DNA of 33,913 nt from a bacterium (GCA_030428825.1 JAUIEL010000002.1:1-33913); one strand, 5' to 3'; shown: positions 2,731-28,603, counted from the stretch's first letter. Notes: generated from the sequence alone by a model not told the origin. Translations and numbers: made by a program.

Positions 2731-2825
2731 GCGTTCGCCGGATCGCGTTCCGACCTTCGGCGCCAGCATCGGCGTGGCCGGCTGGCTATGATCCACGGCT
2801 TCCCGTCGCCGTTCCGGAGCCCCCG

Positions 2826-3128: not shown

Positions 3129-3131
3129 GAG

Positions 3132-3431: not shown

Positions 3432-3432
3432 G

Positions 3433-5589: not shown

Positions 5590-5630
5590 CGGGCGCGGAG
5601 TCTCGCGCGGGACGGGCGGGAGAATCGGAC

Positions 5631-5664
5631 TTGCTCGAGAATACCGGGTATGTATACTCGGTAT
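5631..5664 (+). promoter_or_regulatory. sigma70-like promoter overlapped by a PadR-type operator palindrome
   Basis: The promoter is TTGCTC (5631-5636), a 16-nt spacer, then TATACT (5653-5658). The inverted repeat is ATACCGGGTAT-GT-ATACTCGGTAT (5641-5664): 11-nt arms with 1 mismatch. It covers the spacer and the -10 element. Confidence 0.5.
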
Positions 5665-5694
5665 CCAACGCCGTCGCGCCCCCGGGAGGCCGCC

Positions 5695-6950: not shown

Positions 6951-6958
6951 CCGCGGGG

Positions 6959-9256: not shown

Positions 9257-9314
9257 TCGCTCGAACGACTCGACCCGCTCTCGGAACCGCCCTCTCCCCA
9301 CCGTCGGAGACGCC

Positions 9315-10781: not shown

Positions 10782-10783
10782 GA

Positions 10784-10808
10784 GGGGGGGCGGGGGAGGG
10801 GCGGGGGG
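10784..10808 (+). other. G-quadruplex-forming motif (four G-runs with 1-nt loops)
   Basis: The sequence is G7-C-G5-A-G4-C-G6, read directly at 10784-10808. It begins 3 nt after the hydrolase stop codon. Confidence 0.5.
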
Positions 10809-10900
10809 ATCCGGCCGAGATCGGCCCCCCGGGCGCGATGGTTCCGTTATAAGGGGGTCCCCGCCCGCGCGAGCGAAGCGGGTCGGCTCAGCCATCTCGC

Positions 10901-10936
10901 CGCACCACCCGCACCCATCGCACCCACCGCACCCAT
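10901..10936 (+). repeat. four tandem 9-nt repeats (CGCACCMYY) in the 5' region of the downstream secreted-protein gene
   Basis: The units are CGCACCACC, CGCACCCAT, CGCACCCAC, CGCACCCAT. They end 5 nt before the AGGAG Shine-Dalgarno of the ATG at 10952. Confidence 0.6.
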
Positions 10937-10951
10937 CGGATAGGAGCCCGC

Positions 10952-11887: not shown

Positions 11888-11918
11888 CCGTCCCGCGCGG
11901 ACCCGCTCGAACGTGATC

Positions 11919-11950
11919 GGGAGGCCGTCGGCCCGCGCCGGCGGCCTCCC
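11919..11950. terminator. bidirectional hairpin terminator between convergent genes
   Basis: GGGAGGCCGTCGG-CCCGCG-CCGGCGGCCTCCC forms a 13-bp stem (one G:U) with a 6-nt loop. It lies between the stop at 11887 (+) and the stop at 11965 (-). There is no U-tract, as is common in high-GC genomes. Confidence 0.55.
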
Positions 11951-11964
11951 GTCGCGTCTCGCGC

Positions 11965-12303
11965 CTACTCGTCGACCGCGATCGCGGTCAGCTTCACGTG
12001 GCCGGACATCTTCGGGTCGAACTCGGCGTCCCGGTGGGTCTCGGCCCGGAAGGTCGGGCTCTTCCCTTTCTCGACCGTCCCGACGTAGACGACGTCGTAC
12101 GCCTTGTCCTCCCGCTCGTGGTCGGACGTCGTGCGGACGCGCCGCACCTGCTTCCCGTCCATCGTCAGGACCGCGTCGAACCACGCGGCGTCGTTCGTCT
12201 TCCGGACGTGGGCGATCGCGTACACGACGCGCTCCCGATTCGACTCGGGGAACGACACCGACGCGGAGTTCGTCCCCTCGTCGCTCTTGATCTGGAAGCT
12301 CAT
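11965..12303 (-). CDS. small hypothetical protein (112 aa), no signal peptide
   Basis: This is the real C-terminal part of ORF 11965..13647(-). The ATG at 12303 is preceded by GAGGAG. Composition is normal and Lys/Asp/Glu-containing (MSFQIKSDEGTNSASVSFPESNRERVVYAIAHVRK...), unlike the Arg/Ser-rich upstream part of the ORF. Family not recognised. Confidence 0.6.
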   Translation of the reverse strand: MSFQIKSDEGTNSASVSFPESNRERVVYAIAHVRKTNDAAWFDAVLTMDGKQVRRVRTTSDHEREDKAYDVVYVGTVEKGKSPTFRAETHRDAEFDPKMSGHVKLTAIAVDE

Positions 12304-12679
12304 CTGGATCTCCTCGGCTGGATGAGTTCGGAAGGGAGAGACCGTGTCCTCCCCGGCGTCGCTCCTGGAAACGACGGAGTCGCGGTCGGTCCGCCAGGAT
12401 TCGCCGGTCCGCCGGCCTCCCGGATCGCACCGCCGTTCGGTCCGGACGGTGTCCGACCCGAGGACTGTCCTCGACCGGGCCCGACACGCTTGCCGGCGGC
12501 CGATGGTCGAGCGGAGCGGGACGGGCAGGTGGCGGGTGCGCTCGGTCCTGGTCCGGACGCGGCGAGGTCCGGGGTTCGGAAGCGAGCCGTTCGGAACGAC
12601 TTCGGAGGGTCGTTCGGTCGGCGGTCGACGCACGGGCAACCGGCGCGCGAGAAATCCGTTCGAATGGTGGAGCCCGACC

Positions 12680-14755: not shown

Positions 14756-14776
14756 CGCGCGTTCGGCCGGACGGGA

Positions 14777-15058
14777 TCAGCGGGCGACGGTGACGCCTCG
14801 CCAGAACGCGACCCGCCCCTTGATCGACTCGGCCGCCGGCTTCGGGTCGGGGTAGCACCACGCCGCGTCCTCGTTCGTCTCCCCGTCGACGACCACGTGC
14901 ATGTACGTCGCCTCCCCCTTCCACGGGCAGACCGACTTCATGTCGCTCGGTCGGAAGAAGTCGTCGTGGAGCGACTCGCGAGGGAAGTAGTGGTTCCCGT
15001 CGACGACGACGGTGTCGTCGCTCTCGGCGATCGTCTTTCCGTTCCAGACGGCCTTCAT
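14777..15058 (-). CDS. DUF427 domain protein
   Basis: I chose the internal ATG at 15058 (GGGAGAAGG upstream). MKAVWNGKTIAESDDTVVVDGNHYFPRESL..CPWKGEATYMHVVVDGETNEDAAWCYPDPKPAAESIKGRVAFWRGV matches the DUF427 consensus over its full length. Confidence 0.85.
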   Translation of the reverse strand: MKAVWNGKTIAESDDTVVVDGNHYFPRESLHDDFFRPSDMKSVCPWKGEATYMHVVVDGETNEDAAWCYPDPKPAAESIKGRVAFWRGVTVAR

Positions 15059-15107
15059 GCCTTCTCCCGCGCGCTCGAGGTCTCCGGCCATCGTATACGC
15101 TTCGACC

Positions 15108-17465
15108 ATGGGACCAGGATGCGCCTTCGCTCTCGCGATCGTCTTCTTTCACGACGGGCACGCGCCGTCCGCGATGCCCGTCGGTCCGTTCGCGTACGAC
15201 GACGCGACCGTCGTCGAGGCGGAGCGGATCGAGGGGCCCGGGGCGTACGACCCATCGGTCGGCAGCCGTCCCGGAGACACGCGCGTGACGTGGCTCGACT
15301 TCGTGCCGGGGAAGGGAGACACGAGGGACGGGGCGCCGCCGGACATCGGAGTCTCACGTCTCGCGAGGCCGACCCTCACGATCGGGCCGAAGGGGCTCCT
15401 CCGGACGCGGGAGGAGCACCGGAACGGCGGTTGGGAGGTCGTCACCTCCGTCGGAGCGCCGCTCTCGGTATCGGGCGGCGCGATCGACCACCGCGCGGCC
15501 GGGGGCCCGGACGGGTTCTGGGTCGTCTGGCAGGAGGTCGCCGACGGCGACTTCGACGTCCGGGCCCGGTTCGTGGGGATCGGGGGCGGGCCGGGCGCGC
15601 GCCACCCGCTCGCGGAGGCGGCGAACCCGTCGTTCCGCGCGCCGCCGTGGGACGAGCCGGAGCGCGTCGCCGACACGCCGTACGGCGAGTGGCACCCCGA
15701 CGTCGCGGTCGCCCCGGACGGGCGGGTGCTCGCGGTCTGGGACGCGTCCGACGGGTCGAGCTTCGACGTGCGGGGACGGATCCGGTCCGCCGACGGATGG
15801 GGGGCGCCGTTCGTCCTCGCCGACGGGCCGCGATTCCAGGCCCGGCCGACGTGCGCGGCGCTCCCGGACGGCCGGTTCTTCGTGGCGTGGGAGGAGGGGG
15901 CCGAGGGGTGGGGCGAGGCGTACCGCTCGGTCGACACGCTCTGGAACAACGTGACCGACGCGTACGGCCCGGTCCACAGCTTCCGTCTGACCCGTTGCGG
16001 GCTCATCGAGGCGGACGGGACGTGGCGGGAGGTCGACTACCCGATGCCGTCGCTCGAGCGGGCGCGCGCGCGCTCGGACGCGCGCGAGGGGGCGCGGACG
16101 CTCGGCGTCTTCTACGAGCGTCCGGAGGTCGCGGTCGACGACGCGGGGCGGCCGTGGGTCGTGGTGCGACACCTCTTCGCGCCGCAGCTGGCGCGCCCCG
16201 AGGCGTGCCGCCACCACGTCGAGGAGGGGTGGCGGATCGTCGCGCGCTGCTTCACCGACGACGGCTGGTCGGAGGCGTTCGCGTTCGACGTGCCGCAGCG
16301 GGACGGGAACCAGCGCCTCTCGGTCGACGGGACCGCGCGCGGCGTCGTCGCGGTCTGGGGGACCGGCCGGAGCGATCGTCGCGACGATCCGCTCCCGCGC
16401 GGGGTGGTGCGCGGCGAGGTGGCGGTCGGCGAGGGGGCGCCGCCGCGCCCGACGTCCGGGGTCGCGCTCCGTCCGGTCGCCGCCGGCCGCGGCGCGCCGG
16501 ACCGGTCCCGTCCCGCGGTCGCGCTCGAGGGCGGCCCGGAGATGACGCTCGTCTTCGGCGACCTGCACCGGCACACCGACCTGTCGCTCTGCTTCCCGTT
16601 CTACGACGGGTCGCTCGACGACGCGTACCGGTACGCGATCGAGGTCGCGCGGCTCGACTTCCTGGCGATCACCGACCACACTCGCGACCTCGATCACGGC
16701 GACGCGCTCGGGCTCCTGTGGCACCGCGCGAAGAAGGAGGTGACGCGGCGCGAGCTCACCGGAGTCTTCGTCCCGTACTTCGCGTTCGAGCGGAGCCACG
16801 GAGACACCGACCACAACGTCGTGACGCTCGACCCGAGCGTGCTCGAGGACTTCCCGCCGCCGCTGCCGGAGTACTGGCGTCGGATCGGGAACGACACGAT
16901 CACGATCCCGCACCAGCCGTTCGTGGGGGAGGTGTGGGCGCATCACGACGACGTGAAGCGCCCGCTGTTGGAGATCTACCAGGGGTTCCGCGACCGGGAC
17001 GCCGAGGCGGCCGCCGCGGCCGGGCTCGCGAGGGGGTACCGCTTCGGGTTCGTCGCCAGCAGCGACCACCTCTCGACGCGCGCGAGCTGGGCCGGTGTCT
17101 GGACGACCCGAGTCGACCGCGAGTCGATCTTCCGCGCGATGCAGTCGCGCCGGACGTTCGCCGCGACGACGCGCGCGACGCTCGTGCTTCGGAGCGGTCC
17201 GCACTGGATGGGGGAGCGGTTCGTCGCCTCCGCGCCGCCGACGTTCGAGGCGCGCTACGCCGGGACGGCGCGGGTGGAGGCGATCACCTGGGTCGTCGAC
17301 GGCGAGGAGCACCGCCGCGAGATGCCGCCGTCGCTCGACTCCCGCGAGTGGACGTACACGCCGGGCGACGTCACCGCGCCCGGCGAGCACCGCGTCCACG
17401 TCCGGATCGAACAGGGCGACGGCCACCGAGCGTGGTCGTCGCCCCTCTGGTACACGCTCCGCTGA
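15108..17465 (+). CDS. PHP/DUF3604-like metallohydrolase with an N-terminal repeat (propeller-like) region
   Basis: The C-terminal half has GDLHRHTDLS..LDFLAITDHT..ERSHGDTDHNV..ASSDH, a PHP-type histidine-rich metal site. The N-terminal half has repeated blades such as DGFWVVWQEVADGDFDVRAR, DGRVLAVWDASDGSSFDVRGR and DGRFFVAWEEGAEGWG. The start is uncertain: there is no SD, and TATACG lies 8 nt upstream of the ATG at 15108. Confidence 0.7.
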   Translation: MGPGCAFALAIVFFHDGHAPSAMPVGPFAYDDATVVEAERIEGPGAYDPSVGSRPGDTRVTWLDFVPGKGDTRDGAPPDIGVSRLARPTLTIGPKGLLRTREEHRNGGWEVVTSVGAPLSVSGGAIDHRAAGGPDGFWVVWQEVADGDFDVRARFVGIGGGPGARHPLAEAANPSFRAPPWDEPERVADTPYGEWHPDVAVAPDGRVLAVWDASDGSSFDVRGRIRSADGWGAPFVLADGPRFQARPTCAALPDGRFFVAWEEGAEGWGEAYRSVDTLWNNVTDAYGPVHSFRLTRCGLIEADGTWREVDYPMPSLERARARSDAREGARTLGVFYERPEVAVDDAGRPWVVVRHLFAPQLARPEACRHHVEEGWRIVARCFTDDGWSEAFAFDVPQRDGNQRLSVDGTARGVVAVWGTGRSDRRDDPLPRGVVRGEVAVGEGAPPRPTSGVALRPVAAGRGAPDRSRPAVALEGGPEMTLVFGDLHRHTDLSLCFPFYDGSLDDAYRYAIEVARLDFLAITDHTRDLDHGDALGLLWHRAKKEVTRRELTGVFVPYFAFERSHGDTDHNVVTLDPSVLEDFPPPLPEYWRRIGNDTITIPHQPFVGEVWAHHDDVKRPLLEIYQGFRDRDAEAAAAAGLARGYRFGFVASSDHLSTRASWAGVWTTRVDRESIFRAMQSRRTFAATTRATLVLRSGPHWMGERFVASAPPTFEARYAGTARVEAITWVVDGEEHRREMPPSLDSREWTYTPGDVTAPGEHRVHVRIEQGDGHRAWSSPLWYTLR

Positions 17466-17474
17466 GACGCGTCC

Positions 17475-18386
17475 CTACTGCACGGACATCCAGAGCGCGT
17501 TCGTCGACGCGACGCCGTCGGCCGCGCCGGGGTCCCCGACGAGGGCCTGCAGGTAGAGGTTGAACGGGACCGGCGTGTCGTTCGGGAGCGTGGCGCCGAA
17601 CGAGAGCGATCCGCTCCCCGGCACCGTGAACGGCACCGCGACCGGGAGGAGCGGCGCGACCTGCAGGAGGCAGGACGGCGTGATCGCCGCGACCTGGTTC
17701 GAGCTTCCGAGCAGGAGGATCGCCGGCGCGCCGGGGAGCATCTGCGTCATGTCGATGGTGATCGCCGACAGCGGCTTGGGGCAGCCGGTGCCGTCGATCG
17801 CCGGCGCCACGCCGCCCGTCCCCGGGCACGCGGAGCCGTACGTCTGGAACCCGCCCGCGCACGCGTTGCAGTAGAGGCGGAACTTCCAGTTCGAGGAGGG
17901 GAACGAGAACGGTCCGTTCCAGGTCTGGCCGCCGTCGAACGAGCCGCGGTACTGCTGGCCGGGGGTCGCGAGCGCCTCGACCGAGGCCTGCGAGCCGTTG
18001 ATGGGGCTCCAGACCATCCAGTAGGTCGTGCCGGCGTTCAGCGGGATCGGCGTGCCGAGGTCGGCGCCCTGCCAGGAGTTCGTCGAGGACATGTTCCACG
18101 AGGCGGAGCCGAGGCTCGCGAGCGGCTCGTTCGGGCCGGCGTCGTGGGACCAGAGGGGGACGGAGTTCGTCCCGCTCCCCTCGCCGGTGAAGACCTCGAT
18201 GCGCGTGCACGCGATCGGGGCCGAAGGGGTGAACTTCACCGCCAGCATCAGGTTCGGTCCGCCCATCGACGTGCCGTCCGAGAAGTTCGGCGTGTCGTTC
18301 TCGGCGTGACAGATCTGCGCGCCCGCCTCGACGGACAGGAGCGCCGCGAACACCGCGGACAGGAGCGAGAGAGACGTCTTCGACAT
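17475..18386 (-). CDS. secreted protein: DUF4082-like N-domain plus the C-terminal domain shared with 10952..11887
   Basis: The internal ATG at 18386 is preceded by GGAGGA. Signal peptide MSKTSLSLLSAVFAALLSVEAGA. The N-domain LMLAVKFTPSAPIACTRIEVFTG..VPLWSHD..WQGADLGTPIPLNAGTTYWMVWSP resembles DUF4082 from memory. See the findings for the C-domain. Confidence 0.75.
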   Translation of the reverse strand: MSKTSLSLLSAVFAALLSVEAGAQICHAENDTPNFSDGTSMGGPNLMLAVKFTPSAPIACTRIEVFTGEGSGTNSVPLWSHDAGPNEPLASLGSASWNMSSTNSWQGADLGTPIPLNAGTTYWMVWSPINGSQASVEALATPGQQYRGSFDGGQTWNGPFSFPSSNWKFRLYCNACAGGFQTYGSACPGTGGVAPAIDGTGCPKPLSAITIDMTQMLPGAPAILLLGSSNQVAAITPSCLLQVAPLLPVAVPFTVPGSGSLSFGATLPNDTPVPFNLYLQALVGDPGAADGVASTNALWMSVQ

Positions 18387-18450
18387 GAGATCCTCCAATG
18401 GGGTGTCCGAGTCTACCATCGGGATGGAACCGAGCGGGAAATCGTCCGCG

Positions 18451-18765
18451 CTACTCGAGCCCGTCGATCAGGTCGGCGAGCCCGCGCACGTGGCGCCGCA
18501 CCGCCGAGCGCCCGGCCCGGGAGAGGGTGTACCAGGTGATCGGCTTGCGGTCCTCGAACCGCTTGTCGGCCGTGACGTACCCCTCGTCCTCGAGCTTCCT
18601 CAGGTGAGCGCCGAGGCTCCCGTCGGTCTCGCCGAGCAGATCCTTCAGCCGGCGGAAGCTCATCCTCCGATGGCGAGCGAGGAGGACCGTGATCGCGAGC
18701 CGCACCCGGTGATCGAGGAGGCGGTCGAGGGCCTCGAGCCCGTCCAGGCCGTCAGCCTCGGACAT
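18451..18765 (-). CDS. winged-helix transcriptional regulator (HTH_34-like)
   Basis: LDRLLDHRVRLAITVLLARHRRMSFRRLKDLLGETDGSLGAHLRKLEDEGYVTADKRFEDRKPITWYTLSRAG is the typical pattern of this small wHTH family. GGGGAGGG lies upstream. The start overlaps the end of the upstream membrane-protein gene by 14 nt. Confidence 0.8.
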   Translation of the reverse strand: MSEADGLDGLEALDRLLDHRVRLAITVLLARHRRMSFRRLKDLLGETDGSLGAHLRKLEDEGYVTADKRFEDRKPITWYTLSRAGRSAVRRHVRGLADLIDGLE

Positions 18766-19324
18766 GCTCGCCCTCCCCGTCGCGCGGCCGGCTCGCCACG
18801 ACGCCCGCGCACGCCAGTCCGAACGCGACCAGCCCCGCCACCAGGGTCCAGCTGTCGCGGGAGAGGAGGACGAAGACGCCGGCGACCATGAGCGCTCCGG
18901 GGAGGAGCAGCAGGCGGTCGAGGTGCAGACCCGCGAGGAGGTAGGTGACCCCCACGAGCAGGAGCGACACCGGGCCGACGCCGGCCGGCGCGACGAGACC
19001 TCGGTGCGCCAGCAGGAGGACGATCCCGACCGCGCCGAGGAGGATTCCCCAGTGTGCGAAGTGGCGGAGCCCCTCCCTCCCGTCCAGCTGGCCGACCCTC
19101 CGGGAGTGACGGTAGCCGAGGACGAGGCTGACGAGCCAGCCGGTCGGCCCGGCGATCGACCAGAAGAGCGGGACGTGCCGCGGGGAGTGGTCCGGCAGCG
19201 CGATCCCGACGAGGCAGATCGCGGCCCAGAGCCAGTAGATCGTCGCCGGTCCGGCGGGGGCGGGTCGGTCGACGGCGCGGCGGACGAAGGAGAGGTCCTC
19301 GTGCAGGCGTTCGGCGTCGGTCAT
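18752..19324 (-). CDS. hypothetical polytopic membrane protein (about 5-6 TM), co-transcribed with the wHTH regulator
   Basis: I chose the internal ATG at 19324 (AGAGGGA upstream). Hydrophobic helices: [90 protein letters not shown]. Confidence 0.7.
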
Positions 19325-19349
19325 CGGTCCCTCTTGTGGTTCCTTGCGA

Positions 19350-19370
19350 GTACTCTGAAACCCAGAGTAC
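19350..19370. promoter_or_regulatory. candidate operator: perfect 8-nt inverted repeat in a divergent intergenic region
   Basis: GTACTCTG-AAACC-CAGAGTAC. It sits in a locally AT-richer stretch of the 170-bp spacer between the divergent starts at 19324(-) and 19495(+). Confidence 0.45.
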
Positions 19371-19494
19371 ACGGAAATCGCGAGGCGCGCCAGCCCCTTC
19401 CCGCTCGGGGCGCGGCCCGAGGCGGGACGGGTGGCGAGCAATCTCCTCGGGCGGCGCTCCCGTCGAGCGCGCGCGCCCGCTACCCTCGCGCCTG

Positions 19495-20226
19495 ATGATC
19501 TCCGTCCACCCGCGCCTCCGGCCGCTCCTCGACAGCGCCCGGGACCTCACGCCGATCGTGATCGTGGTGGCGTTCTTCCAGCTCGTCGTCCTGCGCCAAC
19601 CGTTCCCGAACCTCGGCGGCGTGCTCCTCGGGCTCGTCTTCGTCCTCGCGGGACTGGCGCTGTTCGTGCAGGGGCTCGAGCTCGGCCTCTTCCCGCTCGG
19701 CGAGAGCATGGCGCACGCGTTCGCGCGGAAGGGCTCGATCGGCTGGCTGATCGCGTTCGCGTTCGCGCTCGGCTTCGGGACGACCGCGGCCGAGCCGGCG
19801 CTGATCGCGATCGCCGACGAGGCGGCGGCGGTCGCGGCGCACGACGGGGTCGTGGAGGACGACGACGCGGCGCGCGGTCGCTACGCGCTCGGCCTCCGGC
19901 TGACCGTGGCGCTCTCGGTCGGGGCGGCGATCGTCCTCGGGGTCTGGCGGATCCTCAAGGGATGGCCGCTGCACCTCATGATCGCCGGAGGATACGTCGT
20001 CGTCGTGTCGCTGACCGCGTTCGCGCCGCCGGAGATCATCGGCGTCGCCTACGACTCGGGCGGCGTGACGACCTCGACCATCACGGTCCCGCTGGTCACC
20101 GCGCTCGGCGTCGGCCTGTCGTCCTCGATCAAGGGGAGGAACCCGATCATCGACGGGTTCGGCCTCATCGCGCTCGCCTCGCTGACCCCGATGGCGTTCG
20201 TGATGATCTACGGGATGGTCGCCTGA
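19495..20226 (+). CDS. DUF1538-family integral membrane protein (paralogue 1)
   Basis: This is the real part of ORF 19336..20226. The N-terminus parallels paralogue 2. Motifs: [70 protein letters not shown]. There is no obvious SD before the ATG at 19495. Confidence 0.85.
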
Positions 20227-21032
20227 TGCCGTCGCTCGCCGAGCTGGTCTCCGTGTTCCTGACGACGACGCGCGACGTGTTGCCGATCGCGGTGATCCTC
20301 ACGGTGTTCCAGGCGTTCGTGCTCCGCCGGGCGCCGCCCGACCCGCGCCGGCTGCTCTTCGGGTTCGCGTGCGTCCTCGCCGGGCTCGCGCTCTTCCTCC
20401 TCGGCCTGGAACACGCCCTCTTCCCGCTCGGCAAGACGATGGCGGCGCAGCTCACCGAGCGCGCGCTCGCGGCGGAGGGCGCGGCGGACCCGCGCGACTT
20501 CGGCTGGCTGTACGCGTTCGCGTTCGCGATCGGCTTCGCCACCACGGTCGCCGAGCCGTCGCTCATCGCCGTCGCGCTCAAGGCGAACGAACTGTCCGGC
20601 GGCGCGATCGGGGTCTTCGGACTCCGCGTCGCGGTGGCGCTCGGCGTGGCGGTCGGCATCACGCTCGGCGTGTTCCGGATCGTGGTCGGGGCCCCGCTCC
20701 ATCACTTCATCATCGTCGGGTACGTTGTCGTGGTGGTGCAGACGTTCTTCGCTCCCCGGCTCATCGTGCCGCTCGCGTACGACTCGGGCGGCGTGACGAC
20801 CTCCACGGTCAGCGTGCCGCTGATCGCCGCGCTCGGGCTCGGCCTCGCGATGTCGGTCCCGGGGCGCAGCCCGCTCGTCGACGGGTTCGGGCTGATCGCC
20901 TTCGCCAGCCTCTTCCCGATCATGTCCGTGATGGCGTACGCGCAGATCGCCGAGTGGCGGTCCCGGCGCGTCGGCCGCGCGGACGAACCCGGCCCCGAGG
21001 AGGCGCCCGGAACCCCCGGAGGATCCCCATGA
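20226..21032 (+). CDS. DUF1538-family integral membrane protein (paralogue 2)
   Basis: The ATG shares one base with the upstream TGA (TGATG at 20224-20228). Motifs: [70 protein letters not shown]. Confidence 0.85.
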   Translation: MPSLAELVSVFLTTTRDVLPIAVILTVFQAFVLRRAPPDPRRLLFGFACVLAGLALFLLGLEHALFPLGKTMAAQLTERALAAEGAADPRDFGWLYAFAFAIGFATTVAEPSLIAVALKANELSGGAIGVFGLRVAVALGVAVGITLGVFRIVVGAPLHHFIIVGYVVVVVQTFFAPRLIVPLAYDSGGVTTSTVSVPLIAALGLGLAMSVPGRSPLVDGFGLIAFASLFPIMSVMAYAQIAEWRSRRVGRADEPGPEEAPGTPGGSP

Positions 21033-21382
21033 GGTTCAAGTTGATCGTGGCGTTCGTGGACGACCACGCCACGGACCGCATCACGCAGGCGGCGCGCGAG
21101 GCCGGGGCGACCGGCTGCACCGTCGTCCACAACGCGCGCGGCGAGGGGCTCGAGGAGAAGAAGACGTTCCTCGGGCTGACGCTGGACACGCAGCGCGACG
21201 TCGTGCTCCTCCTGGTCGAGGAGCACCGGGCCCGCCACGTCCTGGAGACGCTCGGCGAGGCCGGCGAGTTCGACACGACCTCGGGGACGGGCATCGCGTT
21301 CCAGGTCGACGTCGAGGACGCCGTCGGCGTCGCGCATCAAGTCGAGAGCATCACCCCGGCCCTGGAGGACGAGGAGCTGTGA
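21029..21382 (+). CDS. P-II (GlnB-like) superfamily signal protein
   Basis: ATGA overlap with the upstream stop. 117 aa. MRFKLIVAFVDDHATDRITQAAREAGATGCTVVHNARGEG..(short T-loop)..RDVVLLLVEEHRARHVLETLGEAG..GTGIAFQVDVEDAVGV fits the beta-alpha-beta-beta-alpha-beta P-II layout. Confidence 0.8.
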   Translation: MRFKLIVAFVDDHATDRITQAAREAGATGCTVVHNARGEGLEEKKTFLGLTLDTQRDVVLLLVEEHRARHVLETLGEAGEFDTTSGTGIAFQVDVEDAVGVAHQVESITPALEDEEL

Positions 21383-21786
21383 GCGAGTCGAAATCGATCG
21401 TGCGGGTCGCCGACGTCATGGGGCGCGAGTTCGAGACCGTCGAGGGGGTGACGACCGTCGCGGCCGCGCTGCGCGTGATGAAGGAGAAGGACGCCCACTT
21501 CCTGATCGTCGCCAAGCGGAGCGACGACGACGAGTACGGGATCGTCCTGGTCTCCGACATCGCCAAGCAGGTCCTGGCGCGGAACCGCTCGCCCGAGCGG
21601 ACGAACGTCTACGAGATCATGTCGAAGCCGGTGCTGTCGGTCCGGCCGTCGATGGACATCCGGTACTGCGCGCGGCTGTTCGAACAGTTCGGCATCTCGA
21701 CGGCGCCCGTCGTCGACCGGAACGAGATCCTCGGCGTCGTCGCGTACGACGAGCTCGTGCTGAAGGGGTTGGCCCGCGACATGTGA
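21379..21786 (+). CDS. tandem CBS-domain protein
   Basis: GTGA overlap with the upstream stop. Two CBS-like units: VADVMGREFETVEGVTTVAAALRVMKEKDAHFLIV and VYEIMSKPVLSVRPSMDIRYCARLFEQFGISTAPVVDRNEILGVVAYDEL. Confidence 0.85.
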   Translation: MSESKSIVRVADVMGREFETVEGVTTVAAALRVMKEKDAHFLIVAKRSDDDEYGIVLVSDIAKQVLARNRSPERTNVYEIMSKPVLSVRPSMDIRYCARLFEQFGISTAPVVDRNEILGVVAYDELVLKGLARDM

Positions 21787-21831
21787 GCCGGGGGGGCCGG
21801 GGACGTACGATCCCCGGCGGAGGGTCCGCCG

Positions 21832-22905
21832 ATGGAAGAGCTCTGGTCGCGGTTCCTGGGCCTCTGGGAGACGCCGCGGACGCAGGCGATGATGATCGTC
21901 GTGGCGTCGATCGTCGCGGCGAAGCTGATCGATTGGGTCACCGCCGCGACGCTCCTCGTCTGGAGCCGCCGCACCCGGTCGCAGCTCGACGACGAGGCGG
22001 TCCGGATCGTCCGCGGCCCGATCGTCCGAACGGTCGTCCTCGCCGGCCTCGCCGTCGCGACCCGGCGGCTCGCCCTCGAGGAGGAGGTCGAGCGGACCAC
22101 GCTCCGGGTGCTCGGCACGCTCGCGGTGCTGATCTGGTCCCGCTTCGCGTGGCGCCTCTTCGACCTCCTGCTGCGGGTCGCGCGCGCCCACGCCGATCGG
22201 TTCCGCCTGGTCGAGGACCGGACCTACCCGCTCTTCTCGAACCTGTCGAAGATCGTCCTGTTCGGCGCGGCGGTCTACGCGGTGATCGTGATCTGGGACA
22301 TCGACGCCACCGGCTGGCTCGCGTCGGCCGGGATCGTCGGCATCGCGCTCGGGTTCGCGGCGAAGGACACGCTCGCCAACCTGTTCGCGGGCGTCTTCGT
22401 CATCGCCGACGCGCCGTACCGGGTCGGCGACTTCATCGTGCTCGGCTCCGGCGAGCGCGGCCAGGTGACGAACATCGGCCTCCGCTCCACCCGGCTGATG
22501 ACGCGCGACGACATCGAGATCACGATCCCGAACGCGGTGATCGCCTCGTCGATGGTCACCAACGAGACCGGCGGACCGCACTCGAAGCGTCGGGTCCGGG
22601 TGAAGGTCTCGGTCGCCTACGGCTCGGACGTCGACCGCGTGCGCGCGGCGCTGCTCGAGGTGGCGGCGGCCGAGCCGTCGGTCTGTCCCGAGCCGACGCC
22701 GCGCGTCCGCTTTCGCGCGTTCGGCGAGTCGGGGCTCGACTTCGAACTCCTGACGTGGATCGACGAGCCGGTGCTGCGCGGCCGGGTCCTCGACGCGCTG
22801 AACACCGCGGTCTACAAGCGGTTCGCCCGGGAGGAGATCGAGATCCCGTACCCGAAGCTCGACCTCTACCTGAAGGAGACGCCGCCGGCCGCGCCGCCCG
22901 CCTGA
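21832..22905 (+). CDS. MscS-family mechanosensitive ion channel
   Basis: TM3/beta-domain signature: GIVGIALGFAAKDTLANLFAGVFVIADAPYRVGDFIVLGSGERGQVTNIGLRSTRLMTRDDIEITIPN. Confidence 0.9.
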   Translation: MEELWSRFLGLWETPRTQAMMIVVASIVAAKLIDWVTAATLLVWSRRTRSQLDDEAVRIVRGPIVRTVVLAGLAVATRRLALEEEVERTTLRVLGTLAVLIWSRFAWRLFDLLLRVARAHADRFRLVEDRTYPLFSNLSKIVLFGAAVYAVIVIWDIDATGWLASAGIVGIALGFAAKDTLANLFAGVFVIADAPYRVGDFIVLGSGERGQVTNIGLRSTRLMTRDDIEITIPNAVIASSMVTNETGGPHSKRRVRVKVSVAYGSDVDRVRAALLEVAAAEPSVCPEPTPRVRFRAFGESGLDFELLTWIDEPVLRGRVLDALNTAVYKRFAREEIEIPYPKLDLYLKETPPAAPPA

Positions 22906-22912
22906 GGCCGAC

Positions 22913-23581
22913 TCACGTCGCGTCGGTCGCGGCGAGGAGTCTCGCGGTCTGCTCGTCTCCCGACTCCCGGGCCAGATCGCGCGCGTCGCGGCCGTCCGCC
23001 GCCTTGCGCGCCGGGTCGGCGCCGCGGGCGAGGAGGGCGCGCACCATGTCGGACCGGCCGTGGAGCGCGGCGGCGTGGAGCGGCGTGAACCCGCCGCCCT
23101 GTTCGACGTCCGGCGTCGCGCCCGCGGCGAGCAGCGCTTCGACCAGCTCGAACGCGCGGCCGGCGACGGCGCTGTGGAGCGGTCGGACGCCGCCGAGGCC
23201 CGGCGCGACCGCCTCGACGTCGGCGCCCGCCGCGAGGAGGATCCGCCCCGCCTCGACCCGGGCGAAGAACGCGGCGAGGTGGAGCGGCGTCGCTCCGTCC
23301 GCGGCCGCCGTGCGGGCGCGTGCCGGGTCCTCCTCGAGGTGGCGGCGGAGCGTCTCGACGTCGCCGATCGCCGCGGCGTCGAACACGTCGAGCGTCGGCG
23401 CCCGATCGAGGAGGAGCGGCAGGAGGTCGTCCCGGCGGTGATAGAGGCAGGTCCGGACCGGCGTGAGCCCGTCCGCGTCCCGCGCCTCCGCGAGCGCGGG
23501 GTCGTCCGCCAGGAGTCGGGCCGCCTCGTCGGCGTCGCCGCGCCTCACGGCGTCGAAGAACGAGGCGGCCGTCGGGGTCAC
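22913..23581 (-). CDS. ankyrin-repeat protein (222 aa)
   Basis: This is the real C-terminal part of ORF 22913..24955(-). The GTG at 23581 overlaps the aminotransferase stop (GTGA). Repeats: DGATPLHLAAFFARVEAGRILLAAGADV, GVRPLHSAVAGRAFELVEALLAAGATPD, GGFTPLHAAALHGRSDMVRALLARGADP. Confidence 0.8.
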   Translation of the reverse strand: MTPTAASFFDAVRRGDADEAARLLADDPALAEARDADGLTPVRTCLYHRRDDLLPLLLDRAPTLDVFDAAAIGDVETLRRHLEEDPARARTAAADGATPLHLAAFFARVEAGRILLAAGADVEAVAPGLGGVRPLHSAVAGRAFELVEALLAAGATPDVEQGGGFTPLHAAALHGRSDMVRALLARGADPARKAADGRDARDLARESGDEQTARLLAATDAT

Positions 23582-24798
23582 TCGAGCGCTCCCGCGAGCG
23601 ACTCGACCAGCCGGTCGACGTCGGCGACGGCCGTGGAACAGAGGGCGATCCGGACCGCGCCGTCGATCGGGACCACGAAGACGCCGTCGTCCCGCATGCG
23701 CGCGGCCGTCCGCGCGCCGTCGGCGCACGGCACCGCGACGAAGAACCCGCCCTCGTACCGCGGGTGCCGGACCCCGCGGGCCGCGGCGGCGTCCCGGAAG
23801 GCGGCGACGCGCGCGTCGAGCAGGTCGACGAGCTCCGTCCGCTCCTCCTCGGTCCGCGCGCGCTTCGTCGGGTCCGCGAGCAGCTCTCCGACGACGAGCT
23901 GGCCGAGGTGGTTGCAGTTCGACCAGGTGCCGCGGCAGGCGACGGAGAGGAGCGCCGCGACCGCCTCCCGCGTCGCCGCGTCCTCGGCGACGGCGATCAG
24001 GGCGCCGACGCGGGCGCCGTACTGCGTGAACGCCTTCGAGGCGGTCCACGCCACCAGGACGACCGCTCGGTCGAGCATGCTCGCGACGGGCGCGCGCCAG
24101 CTCCGGGCCCGCGCGCCGCCGAACGCGGCGTACGCGAGGTCGATCACCACGGTCACCGGCGCCCGCCGGCCGGCCTCGCGGACCGCGTCCGCCACCGCCC
24201 GCCACTCCTCGTCGTCGAGGGAGTAGCCGGTCGGGTTGTGGCACGGGAAGTTCAGGACGACCAGCGCCCGCCCCTGCTCGTCGATCGAGCGCGCGAGCGC
24301 CGCGCCGAACGCGGCCGCGTCGAACCGGAGCCGGTCGTCGAACGTCTCGAAGGTCCGGACGGCGCGGCCGGCGTGCGTCGCCATCGTCTCGTACGGGCCC
24401 CAGTAGTGGCGGCTCGTCAGGAGGTGCTGACCCGGCGCGAGGAAGTTCGAGACGGCGAGGTGGAGCGCGCCGCTCCCGCCCGGCGTGGCCACGGCCGTCG
24501 CCGCCCCCGCGAGCGCGCCGTCGCCGAGCGCGTCGAGCGTCGCCTGTCGGAGGAAGGTCGGGTCGCCGGCGATCGGGGCGTAGCCGGCGGCGCGTTCGAC
24601 CGGCGCCTCGCGCAGCGCCTCGACGACCGACGGGAGGACCGCGAGCCTCCCGTCGTCGTGGATCAGGGCGCCGAGGGTGGCGTTGACGATCGACTCGCCG
24701 GCGGCCGCGCGACGCCTCGCCTCCGCGTTCAGCGCGAAGATCGGGTCGTCGGCGCCGGGCGGCACGTCGCGGGCGAGGACGCGGTGGGGGTCGCTCAT
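23578..24798 (-). CDS. class-I pyridoxal-phosphate aminotransferase (aspartate/aromatic AspC/TyrB-like)
   Basis: I chose the internal ATG at 24798. Motifs: YAPIAGDP, TPGGSGAL, NFPCHNPTGYSL, and the PLP-lysine block ASKAFTQYGARVGAL. Confidence 0.9.
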   Translation of the reverse strand: MSDPHRVLARDVPPGADDPIFALNAEARRRAAAGESIVNATLGALIHDDGRLAVLPSVVEALREAPVERAAGYAPIAGDPTFLRQATLDALGDGALAGAATAVATPGGSGALHLAVSNFLAPGQHLLTSRHYWGPYETMATHAGRAVRTFETFDDRLRFDAAAFGAALARSIDEQGRALVVLNFPCHNPTGYSLDDEEWRAVADAVREAGRRAPVTVVIDLAYAAFGGARARSWRAPVASMLDRAVVLVAWTASKAFTQYGARVGALIAVAEDAATREAVAALLSVACRGTWSNCNHLGQLVVGELLADPTKRARTEEERTELVDLLDARVAAFRDAAAARGVRHPRYEGGFFVAVPCADGARTAARMRDDGVFVVPIDGAVRIALCSTAVADVDRLVESLAGALE

Positions 24799-24837
24799 GG
24801 CGCGATCGTACGGCGGCCGCCGGCCGGCCCGATTCAC

Positions 24838-24853
24838 CAACTAATTTCTTAGT
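24838..24853. promoter_or_regulatory. AT-rich candidate operator/promoter patch upstream of the blaI-like gene
   Basis: CAACTAATTTCTTAGT contains the small palindrome ACTAA-TTTC-TTAGT. It is the most AT-rich stretch I noticed in the window, and it lies in the divergent spacer 24799..24926. Confidence 0.35.
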
Positions 24854-24926
24854 ATTCAGCCCAACCGGGACGGGGGAGGAACGTTCTCCTCTCCGGCGCC
24901 CGCGCGCGCCCCGAAGGAGGATCCCC

Positions 24927-25340
24927 TTGCCGCGACGTCCGACTCCGACGCTCACCGAGGCCGAGCAGCGCCTGATGGAGGTGGTCTGGGCTCGCGGGAG
25001 CGCGACGGTCCAGGACGTCGTCGACGCGCTCTCCGGGCCGGACGCGCCGGTCTACAACACGGTCCTGACCACGCTCCGGATCCTCGAGAGGAAGGGGTAC
25101 CTCCGTCACACCCAGCGCGGCCGGGCCTTCGTCTACCACCCGCGGGTCGACCGGGCGCAGGCGCGACGCCGGGCGCTCTCCGACCTCGTGCGGCGGTTCT
25201 TCGGCGGCTCGAACCGCGAGCTGGCGCTGGAGCTGTTCGAGGAGGGGGACGTCGACCTCGCCGAGCTCGAGGAGCTTCGCGCCGAGCTCGACCGAGACGA
25301 GGACGGCGGCGGGCCGGACGGCGAGGGGGCGGATCGGTGA
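24927..25340 (+). CDS. BlaI/MecI/CopY-family transcriptional repressor
   Basis: TTG start with GAAGGAGG 6 nt upstream. LTEAEQRLMEVVWARGSATVQDVVDAL...YNTVLTTLRILERKGYLRHTQRGRAFVYHP is the classic Penicillinase_R winged helix. Confidence 0.85.
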   Translation: MPRRPTPTLTEAEQRLMEVVWARGSATVQDVVDALSGPDAPVYNTVLTTLRILERKGYLRHTQRGRAFVYHPRVDRAQARRRALSDLVRRFFGGSNRELALELFEEGDVDLAELEELRAELDRDEDGGGPDGEGADR

Positions 25341-26776
25341 TCGTGACGCTCGACGCGATGGCGCGGACGTTCGCGGGGCTCGGGGCGTCGCTCCTCCTCG
25401 GCGGCGCGGTCGTGACCGGGCTGGCGCTCCTGGCGACGAGGTTGCCGTTCGCGCGGGACGCCGGGGCACGGTGCGCGATCTGGGGGACGGCGATCGCGCT
25501 CGGGCTCGCCGCGCCGGCGGTGCTCGGGCGGGTCGACCTGCGAGGGGCGGACGACGCGTCGGTGGTCCACTTGCATGTCGATCTGGAGGACGAGGTGGAC
25601 GGCGTCGGGACGCGGCGTCGCGTCGTCCGCGAGTCGTCGCCGACCGCCGCGACGCGGGGCGGCCCCTCGGGCGCGCCGCGCGTCGTCGAGTGGCCGGTGG
25701 ACGATCCCGTCGGGCCGCGCGCCATCCTCGCGATCGCGGCGATCTGGGCGGCGTTCGGGACGGCCCGGCTGATCCGGCGGTTCCGACTCCTCCTGCGCGA
25801 CCGCCGTGAAGCCCTCCCGGCCGGAGCGGCGTTGACGTCGCGCGTCCGATCACTCGCGCGCCGGGCCGGCGTGACGAGGCGGGTCGGGGTCGCGGTCGTC
25901 GATCGGGTCGGCTCGCCGCGCCTCGTCCTCGGGGGACGTCCGATCCTCCTCCTCCCCCGCGCGCTCGCGGACGCGCCGCGCGACGAGCTCGACGCGATCC
26001 TGCTCCACGAGCTCGCGCACGCCGCGCGGTACGACGACGTGCAGTGTCTGGTCGTGGAGATCCTCCGCGCGCTCCTCCCGTTCGACCTGCCGCTCCGCCT
26101 CGCGGCGCGCCGGCTCGACGACGAACGGGAGATCGCGTGCGACGACTTCGCGGCCCGCGCGCTCGGGAGCGGCCGGCCGCTGGCGCGCGCCCTCACGGCC
26201 GCCGCGCGGCCGGTCGCCCTGCGACACGCGCCGGCGCCGCACGCGACCACGACCCCCGGCCGGCTCGCCCGGCGGGTGCGGCGCCTCGCCCGGCTCGAGT
26301 TCGTGACGGGAGGCGGGGCGGCGGCGCGGCGGGGCGTGACCCTGCTGTTCGTCGTCGCGTCCCTCGGCGCGCTCGGATCGATCCCCGGCGTCGAGTTCGC
26401 GCCCGCCGACGGCCGGGCCGCGGCGACCGATCGCCACGTCCTCCGGTACGCGCTGGAGGATCCCGGCGTCCGGATCGCGATCGAGGGGGGGTGGTTCGGC
26501 GTCGGCGCGGCGCTCCGCGGCGGGTTGTCGATCGACGACCGCTCCGGCGAAGCGCCCTGGCGGCTCGAGCTGCGGGCCGTGCCGGGCGAGGGGATCGCGC
26601 GGCGGGTCGTCGACGACGGGACCGTCGTCCCGCTCGGGCTCGCCGAACGTCGTCGACTCGACCGGGTGCTCGCGGCGGTCGCCGCCGACGTGCGGACCAC
26701 GCCGTCCGGCGGACGCTTCCTCGCGGGGCTCGCCGCCTGGGGGCTCGAGCCGCCGCCCGCCCCTCCGTCGGACTGA
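25337..26776 (+). CDS. BlaR1/MecR1-like M56 membrane metalloprotease (signal transducer) with an unrecognised C-terminal extracytoplasmic domain
   Basis: The GTG overlaps the blaI-like stop (GTGA). N-terminal TM helices. Zinc site LLHELAHAARYDD followed by EREIACDDFAA. A late TM helix (VTLLFVVASLGALGSI) is followed by about 130 aa with no SxxK or other PBP motif. Confidence 0.85.
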   Translation: MIVTLDAMARTFAGLGASLLLGGAVVTGLALLATRLPFARDAGARCAIWGTAIALGLAAPAVLGRVDLRGADDASVVHLHVDLEDEVDGVGTRRRVVRESSPTAATRGGPSGAPRVVEWPVDDPVGPRAILAIAAIWAAFGTARLIRRFRLLLRDRREALPAGAALTSRVRSLARRAGVTRRVGVAVVDRVGSPRLVLGGRPILLLPRALADAPRDELDAILLHELAHAARYDDVQCLVVEILRALLPFDLPLRLAARRLDDEREIACDDFAARALGSGRPLARALTAAARPVALRHAPAPHATTTPGRLARRVRRLARLEFVTGGGAAARRGVTLLFVVASLGALGSIPGVEFAPADGRAAATDRHVLRYALEDPGVRIAIEGGWFGVGAALRGGLSIDDRSGEAPWRLELRAVPGEGIARRVVDDGTVVPLGLAERRRLDRVLAAVAADVRTTPSGGRFLAGLAAWGLEPPPAPPSD

Positions 26777-26847
26777 ACTCCCGGGTTCCGCCTCGTTCCC
26801 GTTCCCCGTTCCGCCTCGCACGCACTCTTCAACTAAGGAAATAAGAG

Positions 26848-28603
26848 ATGATCCGCACCGCCCTCGCGTCGCTCCTCCTCGTCCTCCTCTCGTCGTCGGC
26901 GGCCGGATCCGCGGCGGCGGCCCCCGCGCCCGACGTCCCGGACGGCACCGTGGTGGCCGGGCCGATCGGCGAGCGGCTCGACGCCTGGTTCTCCCGGCTC
27001 GTCCCGCTCGGCTACTCGGGCGGCGTCGTGGCGTAGCCGGGACGGCGAGGTCCTCCTGCTGAAGGGGTACGGCCTCGCCGACCGGGAGGAAGGCGTCCCG
27101 TTCACCCCGGACACCCGGTTCACCATCGGGTCGATCACGAAGCCGCTGACCGCGATCGCGATCGAACGGCTCCAGACGATGGGGAAGCTCGCGACCGACG
27201 ACTTCGTCTCCGACCACGTCGAGGGCGTCCCGGAGGACCGCGAGGCGTGGACGCTGCACGACCTGCTGACGCACACCGCCGGCCTCCCCCCCGTGTCGGG
27301 AGCGGACTACGAGGCGTGCGGCCGGGACGAGCTGATCCGAATCGCGCTCTCCACCGAGCTCCGGTCGCCGCCCGGGCGGGAGTACGCGTACAGCAACGTC
27401 GGCTTCTCCCTCCTCGCCGCGATCGTCGAACTCCGTTCGGGGAAGACGTACGAGGAGTTCACGCAGGAGACGATCTTCCGCCCGGCGGGGATGACGCGGA
27501 CCGGCTACCGGCTGGACGGCGTCCCGCCGGAGGAGGTCGCGCACGGCTATCTCGGCGAGGAGAGCTGGGGCACGGTGCTCGACCGGCACTGGACGAAGGA
27601 CGGCCCGTCGTGGCACCTGCTGGGGAACGGAGGGACCCACTCGACCCTGCGCGACATGCTCCGCTTCCACCTCGCGCTCCTCGACGACACGATCGTCAAC
27701 GACGAGGAGAAGGAGGAGCTGTTCTTCCCGTACGTCGACGAGGGGGGCGGCGACTCGTTCTACGGCCACGGCTGGACGATCCGCGAGACCGACCGGGGGA
27801 CGACGGACGTCTGGCACAGCGGGGGGAACCCTTACTTCCGGAACCAGATGCACCGGTACGTCGACGAGGGGGCGTTCCTCTACCTCCACACGAACGACGG
27901 GGCGTGGACGGCGGGGCCGCTCCTCGCGCCGGCGGAGGAGATGCTGTTCGGAGGGGAGCCGCCGGCGCCGCCCGAGGTCGTCCCGCTGGAGGAGGCCGAG
28001 CTCGACGCGTTGGCGGGGACGTACCTCCTCGACGGAGAGGCGTCGTTCGAGGTCGAGCGCGTCGGCCGGGCGCTCCGGGTCGTCGCGGAGGGGGAGCGCG
28101 CGTACGGGCTGCTCCACGGTGCGGCGGACGACGAGCTCGAGCGGCGGCGCGCCCGGAGCGAGGCCGCGGAGGAGCGGGTCCGGGAGGCGTTGTTCGGCGA
28201 CGACGCGTCCGGGTTCCTGGCGAGGAACCTCCGTCGGCTCGCCGACGAGGAGGGGCCGTTCGACGGGGTCCGCGCGCTCGGGACCGTCCCGCTCGACGTC
28301 GAGCTGGACGGATTCCCGTCCGACACGGAGATGACGCCGGTGGCGCTGCGTCGGAGCGGCGGCGAGGTCACGGTCCTCGTGCTCTGGGTCGACGGCTCCG
28401 TGGGCGGGCTCGACCTCCGGGAGTCGTACCGTCCGGCGCCGCTCGTCCATTCGATCGGGGACGGTCGGTTCGAGTCGTTCGTACCGGGGGAGGCGCGCCG
28501 GACGGTCGTCCGGTTCGTGCGTGGAGAGGGCGGGGGCGCGGTGACGTTGAGCGTCGAGGGGGCGCCGGCGGGAGAGGGAGCGCGCGCCGTCCGGCGGGGA
28601 TGA
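26848..28603 (+). pseudogene. class-C beta-lactamase/serine-hydrolase family gene interrupted by a 1-nt frameshift (or an assembly error)
   Basis: The signal peptide and first strand (..GYSGGVVA) are in frame 1 and hit TAG at 27034-27036. The continuation SRDGEVLLLKGYGLADREEGVPFTPDTRFTIGSITKPLTA.. (catalytic SxxK = SITK) runs in frame 2 to 28603. Frame 2 has no ATG/GTG/TTG between its upstream stop (26849) and SITK. The first in-frame ATG (27179) lies after the catalytic serine. Confidence 0.7.

Follow-up and report, generated by a model that had tools for sequence, protein, structure and literature searches.

A conserved cassette linking UmpAB-type DUF1538 membrane proteins to a PII-like protein and a tandem-CBS protein

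The DNA analysed here, referred to below as the window, is a bacterial stretch of 33,913 nucleotides (GCA_030428825.1 JAUIEL010000002.1:1-33913) with a GC content of 74%. It contains four adjacent genes, g1 to g4, that encode two paralogous DUF1538 membrane proteins, a PII-like protein and a stand-alone protein with two CBS domains (Table 1). The first-pass annotation, made from the sequence alone, had described these genes as joined by overlapping stop and start codons. The list of open reading frames (ORFs) and the raw sequence agree exactly with its coordinates and with all three junctions: TGATG at 20224-20228 (g1/g2), ATGA at 21029-21032 (g2/g3) and GTGA at 21379-21382 (g3/g4). The families it had named were likewise confirmed by profile hidden Markov model searches against Pfam. 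DUF1538 (PF07556; cut-off 22.6 bits) was detected at full length in both g1 (225 bits, E = 7e-67) and g2 (217 bits, E = 2e-64), P-II (PF00543) in g3 scored 44.5 bits against a cut-off of 25, and g4 revealed two CBS stretches (E = 4e-18). Sequence identity between g1 and g2 is 54%, and all four motif blocks that had been quoted as common to them could be located in both.

Table 1. Coordinates of the cassette, of other features of the window and of the fused loci in Clostridia
Feature	Location	Coordinates	Strand	Remarks
g1, umpA-like, A-type DUF1538 membrane subunit	window	19495-20226	+	243 aa; Pfam DUF1538; NCBIfam best match UmpA
g2, umpB-like, B-type DUF1538 membrane subunit	window	20226-21032	+	268 aa; Pfam DUF1538; NCBIfam best match UmpB
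g3, PII-like	window	21029-21382	+	117 aa; Pfam P-II
g4, stand-alone tandem-CBS protein (Bateman module)	window	21379-21786	+	135 aa; Pfam CBS x2
MscS-type gene	window	21832-22905	+	357 aa; Pfam MscS beta and C-terminal domains; 45 bp downstream of g4
Ankyrin-repeat gene	window	22916-23560	-	beside MscS in the right-hand indel
Winged-helix (wHTH) ORF	window	18451-18765	-	Pfam HTH_34 winged helix
DUF4082 protein	window	17475-18419	-	flanking gene
RecQ-type helicase	window	12326-14755		flanking gene
PadR regulator	window	5590-6213		flanking gene
Flanking genes	window	3340-17465 and 23578-28603		housekeeping/envelope; unrelated to the cassette
Fused DUF1538 locus	L034 (Clostridia)	2879-5030
Fused DUF1538 locus	L037 (Clostridia)	3635-5829
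Fused DUF1538 locus	L038 (Clostridia)	2879-5030
Fused DUF1538 locus	L040 (Clostridia)	3138-5404
Fused DUF1538 locus	L041 (Clostridia)	2379-4525

The first-pass annotation had further assumed that no substrate is assigned to DUF1538, and had itself stated that a literature or database hit with a characterised substrate would refute its claim of novelty. Such a hit exists, and the assumption is wrong. Meng et al. 2017 (PMC5484666) identified the DUF1538 heterodimer UmpAB of Halomonas zhaodongensis as an Na+(Li+,K+)/H+ antiporter, and NCBIfam holds equivalog models for both subunits, NF041627 ('Na,Li,K/H(+) antiporter subunit UmpA', cut-off 490 bits) and NF041628 (UmpB, cut-off 500 bits). The Halomonas subunits are encoded by overlapping paralogous genes, and only their co-expression rescued the antiporter-deficient E. 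coli strain KNabc. UmpA and UmpB were reported to co-immunoprecipitate, and pH-dependent Na+, Li+ and K+/H+ antiport was recorded in everted vesicles (PMC5484666). Thus, the heteromeric transport core proposed for the window has published backing in a homologue. The cloned Halomonas insert ends at umpB, and PII or CBS genes are nowhere mentioned (PMC5484666). Because the insert stopped there, the pair is active without PII or CBS proteins, which fits modulators rather than obligatory subunits.

The window pair resembles Halomonas UmpAB in several respects. Here, too, the DUF1538 genes are adjacent, overlapping paralogs in the order A then B. Both products give strong full-length NCBIfam matches that separate the two types: g1 scores 370.3 bits with the UmpA model and 175 bits with the UmpB model, whereas g2 scores 312.7 bits with UmpB and 204 bits with UmpA. 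A longer loop III-IV has been described as a feature of UmpA, and a longer loop II-III together with a hydrophilic C-terminal tail as features of UmpB (PMC5484666). The same features are found in the window, where g1 has a longer, acidic loop between the third and fourth helices and g2 has both the loop II-III insertion and a hydrophilic tail (EWRSRRVGRADEPGPEEAPGTPGGSP). Within a family of which one representative has been characterised, the locus is an ordinary case, and the 'unknown substrate' angle drops out.

To see how often the four genes occur together, we surveyed gene neighborhoods, as the first-pass annotation had suggested. A DUF1538-anchored scan of GTDB species genomes yielded 30 loci, to which we added the metagenomic locus L033 and the isolate genome of Neptunomonas japonica (L039), and the window proteins were mapped onto all of them. 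This survey of close loci favors proteins with 60% or more identity to g1, and the linkage counts given here apply to the surveyed loci. The 30 scanned loci include Planctomycetota, Spirochaetaceae, many Dehalococcoidia, Zetaproteobacteria (Mariprofundus PV-1 among them), five Salinivibrio, Motiliproteus, an alphaproteobacterium, Latescibacterota and Pirellulaceae. The order DUF1538-DUF1538-PII-CBS was found on two long contigs with unrelated flanks. It is repeated, again between unrelated flanks, in lineages that include Planctomycetota, 'Deltaproteobacteria', Spirochaetaceae, Dehalococcoidia, Zetaproteobacteria, Salinivibrio, Motiliproteus and Neptunomonas. A PII gene comes directly after umpB in every close locus that could be evaluated (33 of 33), the sole exception being cut by a contig end. 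A CBS gene follows PII in 27 of 31 evaluable loci and is missing from four (L012, L027, L028 and L033). Median identity to the window proteins is 69% for UmpA, 63% for UmpB, 57% for PII and 50% for CBS. No other neighbor of the cassette is common across the surveyed lineages.

Dozens of unrelated genomes repeat this gene order, mostly with junctions that overlap, which is more than chance would give. The four genes are one translationally coupled operon that is conserved as a unit. This agrees with the earlier view of the cassette as a functional unit, and with the view of PII and CBS as dedicated companions of the membrane pair. The earlier picture of two equal regulators does not hold: PII is linked to the family as a whole, whereas CBS is an addition confined to a subfamily.

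Several close loci show peculiarities of their own. In Salinivibrio proteolyticus (L023 6627-7853), the umpB stop is replaced by a Gln codon, so that UmpB and PII form one in-frame ORF, which may be a natural fusion or a sequencing error. In its sister Salinivibrio loci (L024-L026), PII occupies the same position as a separate ORF; the stop codon itself was read only in L024. Fusions of UmpB to PII were considered as evidence of interaction and dismissed, as the tested matches of 362-460 aa carry only DUF1538 (two domains in most) and never PII, which leaves L023 as the single in-frame read-through. At least two of the five long DUF1538 proteins inspected look like frameshift artefacts. In L033 (1491-4702), the cassette without CBS lies directly downstream of a gene for an NhaC-type Na+/H+ antiporter (PF03553), and fragmented Na+/sulfate-citrate symporter genes are also found upstream, giving this metagenomic contig the look of a local sodium-linked transporter cluster. 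Upstream of the cassette, five loci of a Chloroflexota subclade (L014, L018, L019, L022 and L030; e.g. L019 797-1729) have in common a membrane protein with several predicted passes, and by eye this protein resembles a voltage-gated-type ion-transport protein. N. japonica, whose cassette already includes a CBS gene, has a second stand-alone CBS gene of 135 aa located 3.3 kb upstream (L039 1296-1703). Finally, the locus of Mariprofundus ferrooxydans PV-1 contains a Zeta-pan RNA motif (Rfam RF03111; score 70.1 bits, gathering threshold 56.7) at L032 5816-5867 on the minus strand, opposite to that of umpA and some 130 nt upstream of this gene.

The pairing with PII extends to distant members of the family. 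We examined seven non-redundant plasmid or chromid records, five from Clostridia and two from Alphaproteobacteria, whose DUF1538 genes show 27-32% identity over whole domains. A PII gene lies immediately downstream in all seven. In the five Clostridia, a single protein of about 500 aa contains two DUF1538 domains and is followed by a PII gene of about 217-240 aa, approximately twice the usual length. In the three Clostridial loci that were aligned (L034, L037 and L038), both halves of the latter are PII-like, making it a tandem PII. In the two Alphaproteobacteria, DUF1538 is split into separate genes and PII has a single domain. Thus, in at least the three aligned loci, the count of PII domains follows that of DUF1538 domains. 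No CBS gene was found beside the distant cassette in the five loci that are annotated. On a Chelativorans plasmid, the first DUF1538 gene is annotated at only 90 aa (L036 4058-4330), with the second gene and PII intact, which may mean that a conjugative plasmid carries a copy in decay.

Next, we focused on the structure of the membrane subunits. The AlphaFold model of UmpA (pLDDT 84.9, pTM 0.76) consists of nine helical elements, with helices at 9-32, 40-79, 82-98/101-116, 124-155, 159-176, 179-194/197-210 and 217-242. Two of the helices are broken, and the breaks fall at the conserved TTAAEP and DSGGVTTST motifs. The polar, helix-breaking character that the first-pass annotation had attributed to the shared motifs is thus reproduced by the model. 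A PDB sequence search with the DUF1538 membrane protein returned no match, and a Foldseek comparison of the model with PDB gave nothing significant. These searches did not tie DUF1538 to SbtA, NhaA, elevator-type or other known transporter folds, and such an assignment was rejected.

We then asked how the two subunits may be oriented in the membrane, taking the seven helical elements as membrane crossings and scoring the bias in lysine plus arginine (K+R) between the two sides. A-type proteins have a bias of +3.1, positive in 58 of 60, with K+R concentrated in the N-terminus and in loops L2-3 and L6-7. B-type proteins have a bias of -4.9, negative in 22 of 22, with K+R concentrated in L1-2 and the C-terminal tail. 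In the fused Clostridial proteins, the bias is +4 to +9 for the first half and -6 to -7 for the second, a mirror image spread over several loops, and the halves are joined by an acidic linker of 25-35 residues that lacks a hydrophobic segment. By the positive-inside rule, this pattern suggests that UmpA and UmpB are antiparallel and that in Clostridia the pair has been fused to an inverted repeat. Fusions of A to B also occur in the window's own subfamily. Two of them (P0123 and P0132, both truncated) have hydrophilic linkers of about 35-45 residues with no obvious hydrophobic segment. A third fusion, P0136, contains a hydrophobic stretch in its linker and would not fit a simple antiparallel model; its C-terminus looks frameshifted.

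Small membrane proteins that pair in opposite orientations, such as paired SMR proteins and Fluc/CrcB, are seen as intermediates on the way to inverted-repeat transporters. The DUF1538 proteins resemble them in that adjacent paralogs show opposite K+R bias, and in that the fusions add no transmembrane segment and retain the mirrored charges. They differ in size, as a DUF1538 subunit is much larger, with about seven helical elements, two of them broken, and in that its topology is read from charge bias only.

The AlphaFold model of g3 (pLDDT 77.7) displays the double beta-alpha-beta arrangement of PII proteins, E-H-E-(loop)-E-H-E, with a T-loop (37-55) of low confidence and an extra C-terminal helix (95-111). 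Foldseek matched it to CPII, GlnB/GlnK and SbtB, all with probability 1.0 and 17-27% identity, and with no clear preference. The top match is CPII (5d4n; E = 7.5e-6, 21% identity), which within error is no better than canonical PII. We also aligned g3 to E. coli GlnB, the sequence of which was verified against 1PIL. Glycines G35, G37, G87 and G89 of GlnB are retained. The T-loop is about four residues shorter than that of GlnB, so the 'short T-loop' of the first-pass annotation was roughly right. Eight of its residues (T46, F47, G49, L50, T54, Q55, R56 and D57) are invariant among 49 homologs. The protein is strongly acidic, with about 23 D+E against 10 K+R as counted from the sequence; it ends in ...ITPALEDEEL and has no cysteine pair.

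Homologs of g3 number at least 7987, and the best 120 are nearly all 117 aa long, 78-97% identical and drawn from several phyla. With g3 as query, the full library yielded 1349 clusters at E <= 1e-3, the number falling to 282 at E <= 1e-10, and the nearest ones include many tandem forms. The g3 group is a distinct PII subfamily that tracks DUF1538. The label 'P-II family nitrogen regulator' carried by these genes is probably wrong, and 'DUF1538 domain-containing protein' hides a published function. Two homologs from JGI are labeled 'YaaQ', with no profile match behind the label. For g3 itself, identity with the c-di-AMP receptor DarA/PstA (YaaQ) was considered and rejected, as only PF00543 was reported at E <= 0.01.

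Comparison with well-studied PII systems brings out both likenesses and differences. Like GlnB and GlnK, g3 has the P-II domain and fold, but all five GlnB residues for phosphate and 2-oxoglutarate contact are replaced. As in SbtA-SbtB and AmtB-GlnK, a PII-fold gene lies directly beside a transporter gene in one transcription unit, here with an ATGA overlap with umpB, and the T-loop is strongly conserved, as expected of a docking element. On the other hand, DUF1538 is unrelated to SbtA and AmtB, neither of which its model matches by Foldseek. Its two genes encode a probably antiparallel pair, whereas SbtA and AmtB are single-chain transporters that form trimers. Unlike SbtB, g3 lacks the C-terminal CGPxGC redox loop and ends in an acidic helix. 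The window also has a second regulator, the CBS protein, and binding of PII to the transporter is putative here. CPII of Thiomonas intermedia, which is PII-like, binds ADP/AMP as well as bicarbonate. Structurally the best match of g3, it is likewise a non-canonical PII linked to ion or carbon transport, but its genomic partner is a different one and a PDB sequence search with g3 gave no match.

The match to the bicarbonate-responsive CPII raises the question of whether the physiological substrate might be something other than Na+, Li+ or K+ exchanged for H+, with the activity seen in E. coli being a side activity. PII and CBS would then tune the transport of another solute (for example bicarbonate, ammonium, an organic ion or a divalent cation), in the manner of SbtA-SbtB and CPII-linked systems. 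The occurrence of the cassette in autotrophs such as Mariprofundus points the same way, and so do the NCBIfam scores of g1 and g2, which fall below the equivalog cut-offs, and the reliance of the functional characterisation on a single study. The distant Clostridial and methanotroph members, at 27-32% identity, may also differ in substrate. However, CPII, GlnB, GlnK and SbtB match g3 about equally, so that the top match carries no specific signal, and vesicle antiport and complementation have been demonstrated for a homolog (PMC5484666). Moreover, cable-bacteria genomics ties UmpAB to salinity, later genome papers take it as a marker of salinity adaptation, and a machine-learning study lists DUF1538 among pH-adaptation features.

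Many hosts of the cassette belong to marine or halophilic taxa, among them Salinivibrio, Motiliproteus, Neptunomonas and Mariprofundus. A riboswitch that could reveal another ligand was also looked for with Rfam, and at gathering thresholds neither the window nor any of 15 loci contained one. We therefore regard a different substrate as rather unlikely and retain cation/proton antiport as the working assignment.

Among proteins of solved structure, g4 is most closely related to CBS-CP12, whose CBS pair (5nmu) it matches over residues 7-129 (E = 1.8e-23), and its homology to CBS pairs spans the full length. CBS-CP12 of Microcystis aeruginosa is AMP-specific, with no binding of ADP, ATP or cAMP (PDB 5nmu). 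Based on this homology, the ligand of g4 is probably an AMP-like adenine nucleotide. The resemblance is limited to the CBS pair, as g4 is a stand-alone protein of 135 aa with no CP12 domain. CBS pairs are a common device for transporter regulation. In OpuA, MgtE and ClC, however, the CBS modules are fused to the transporter, whereas g4 is not.

Combining these lines of evidence, we consider it fairly probable that the cassette encodes a two-subunit monovalent-cation/proton antiporter of the UmpAB type that is gated by the PII-like protein and modulated by the CBS protein. UmpA and UmpB would assemble as a heteromer, most likely in opposite membrane orientations, to give an inverted-repeat transport core in which conserved polar motifs (including TTxAEP) lie at breaks in two helices of each subunit. 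The PII-like protein, a universal partner of the DUF1538 family, would probably dock on the cytoplasmic face through its conserved T-loop, in the manner of GlnK on AmtB or SbtB on SbtA. A ligand bound to it would gate transport; Mg-ATP and 2-oxoglutarate in the canonical mode are unlikely candidates. The tandem-CBS protein, present only in the subfamily of the window, would add a second input, probably an AMP-like adenine-nucleotide signal.

Several observations weigh against this explanation. The NCBIfam scores of g1 and g2 are under the equivalog cut-offs (370.3 vs 490 and 312.7 vs 500 bits), and antiport by the window pair is predicted from homology. The cut-offs appear to be restricted to close relatives of Halomonas, because the Salinivibrio pair scores about the same as the window pair. 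Even so, carrying the substrate over from Halomonas to proteins of roughly 60-70% identity is an extrapolation, and the antiport assignment goes back to a single study from one laboratory, based on vesicle assays and on complementation of KNabc, an E. coli strain and thus a heterologous host. The linkage counts do not include the Halomonas umpAB locus, which was missed by the patterns of the genome scan, and no Halomonas entry is among the best 120 homology matches. A known transport mechanism gets no support from fold comparison, since the DUF1538 model has no structural relative in PDB (best Foldseek E of 0.69, TM <= 0.26, nothing significant). The topology scoring depends on the assumption that all seven helical elements cross the membrane. 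In addition, within the subfamily of the window the B-type bias comes mostly from the C-terminal tail, and taken alone it is only suggestive there. As for regulation, the GlnB residues that contact phosphate and 2-oxoglutarate (R38, Q39, K90, R101 and R103) correspond to L41, E42, I89, G100 and A102 in g3, and nucleotide sensing by the PII-like protein is, from its sequence, not assured. The regulatory role of both PII and CBS is argued from synteny and analogy.

The last point leaves room for an alternative in which PII and CBS are not gates, but signal outputs or structural subunits. In the output version, UmpAB would sequester the PII-like protein at the membrane and thereby relay ion or pH status to cytoplasmic targets; in the structural version, the two proteins would serve assembly or stability. 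PII proteins such as GlnK and SbtB do shuttle between membrane transporters and soluble targets, and the occurrence of two DUF1538 together with two PII domains in at least three Clostridial loci would suit a fixed complex. Yet Halomonas UmpAB works in E. coli without PII or CBS, which are thus not needed for assembly or activity, and no conserved gene for a soluble target travels with the cassette. We judge this alternative improbable, and a gating PII with a modulating CBS remains the reading that we prefer.

The surroundings of the cassette bear on one more alternative. The first-pass annotation had taken the downstream MscS gene and the divergent winged-helix regulator as functional hints, which would make the locus a wholly uncharacterised transporter that forms a solute-homeostasis unit with MscS under control of the winged-helix protein. 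The arrangement invites this view: MscS follows g4 by 45 bp on the same strand with no terminator-like signal between them, and the winged-helix gene lies upstream on the opposite strand. In the nearest relative, the Planctomycetota bacterium JB042 (L003), the contig is 93-97% identical and collinear with the window over 16907-18451 and 19452-21820, and resumes at 23540. It lacks window positions 18452-19451, with the winged-helix gene and a gene for a 229-aa membrane protein, and 21821-23539, with MscS and the ankyrin-repeat gene. The absence of both segments already contradicts such a unit. Furthermore, no homolog of MscS, the winged-helix protein or the 229-aa membrane protein was found near the cassette in the 33 loci probed (L001-L033), and the DUF1538 family does have a characterised member. 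We therefore consider the solute-homeostasis unit highly improbable.

The small CCGGGGA/TCCCCGG hairpin reported between g4 and MscS does exist (21797-21803/21811-21817), but its significance was not borne out. It folds no better than shuffled sequences (z = -0.40; 70 of 200 shuffles did as well) and lacks a T tract, and a role as a terminator or regulatory element was dismissed. No terminator-like or promoter-like site was found in 18300-23300. Both indels are clean, with borders in L003 at 1660-1700 and 4067/4068, and the right-hand breakpoint, that of the second indel (21821-23539), falls 3 nt after the hairpin. A search for mobile-element signatures at these borders gave only weak repeats, as expected in DNA of 74% GC, an example being a 28-nt, 71% inverted repeat (18430-18457/19381-19408). 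Further genes flanking the cassette in the window encode an O-antigen-ligase-like protein, an alpha/beta hydrolase, a DUF3604 protein, a class I/II aminotransferase and a beta-lactamase-family protein.

In the searchable literature, outside which most subscription journals fall, we found no description of PII or CBS linked to DUF1538/UmpAB. The near-universal DUF1538-PII pairing, the match in PII and DUF1538 domain numbers, the CBS add-on, the non-canonical ligand site and the probable antiparallel architecture are all undescribed there. Gene adjacency can be seen in browsable genome annotations, and prior awareness of the DUF1538-PII pairing is possible. We tentatively propose that DUF1538 and PII may form an undescribed, family-wide transporter-PII module in which three features come together. 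First, the transporter would have a fold without a solved relative, occurring as a two-gene antiparallel pair in most lineages and as a fused inverted repeat in Clostridia. Second, a PII-like protein that has lost the phosphate contacts for ATP and 2-oxoglutarate would sense AMP, a second messenger or a cation instead. Third, the number of PII domains would follow that of DUF1538, and one large subfamily, apparently marine or saline, would have a CBS protein as an additional stand-alone sensor.

The system is compact, with four small genes and an existing E. coli KNabc assay for the transporter. It also offers natural variants for comparison: loci with and without CBS, and single or tandem PII matched to split or fused transporters. 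The lack of a solved fold relative and the seemingly antiparallel pair make DUF1538 attractive for structure determination and for the study of inverted-repeat transporter evolution. The best-known role of PII proteins is to control the uptake of nitrogen and carbon, which they do through AmtB, nitrate transporters and SbtA. With a PII-like partner dedicated to a widespread cation/proton antiporter family, PII logic would extend to salt and pH homeostasis. If true, this would add a major new class of PII targets, in ion and pH homeostasis, beyond nitrogen and carbon.

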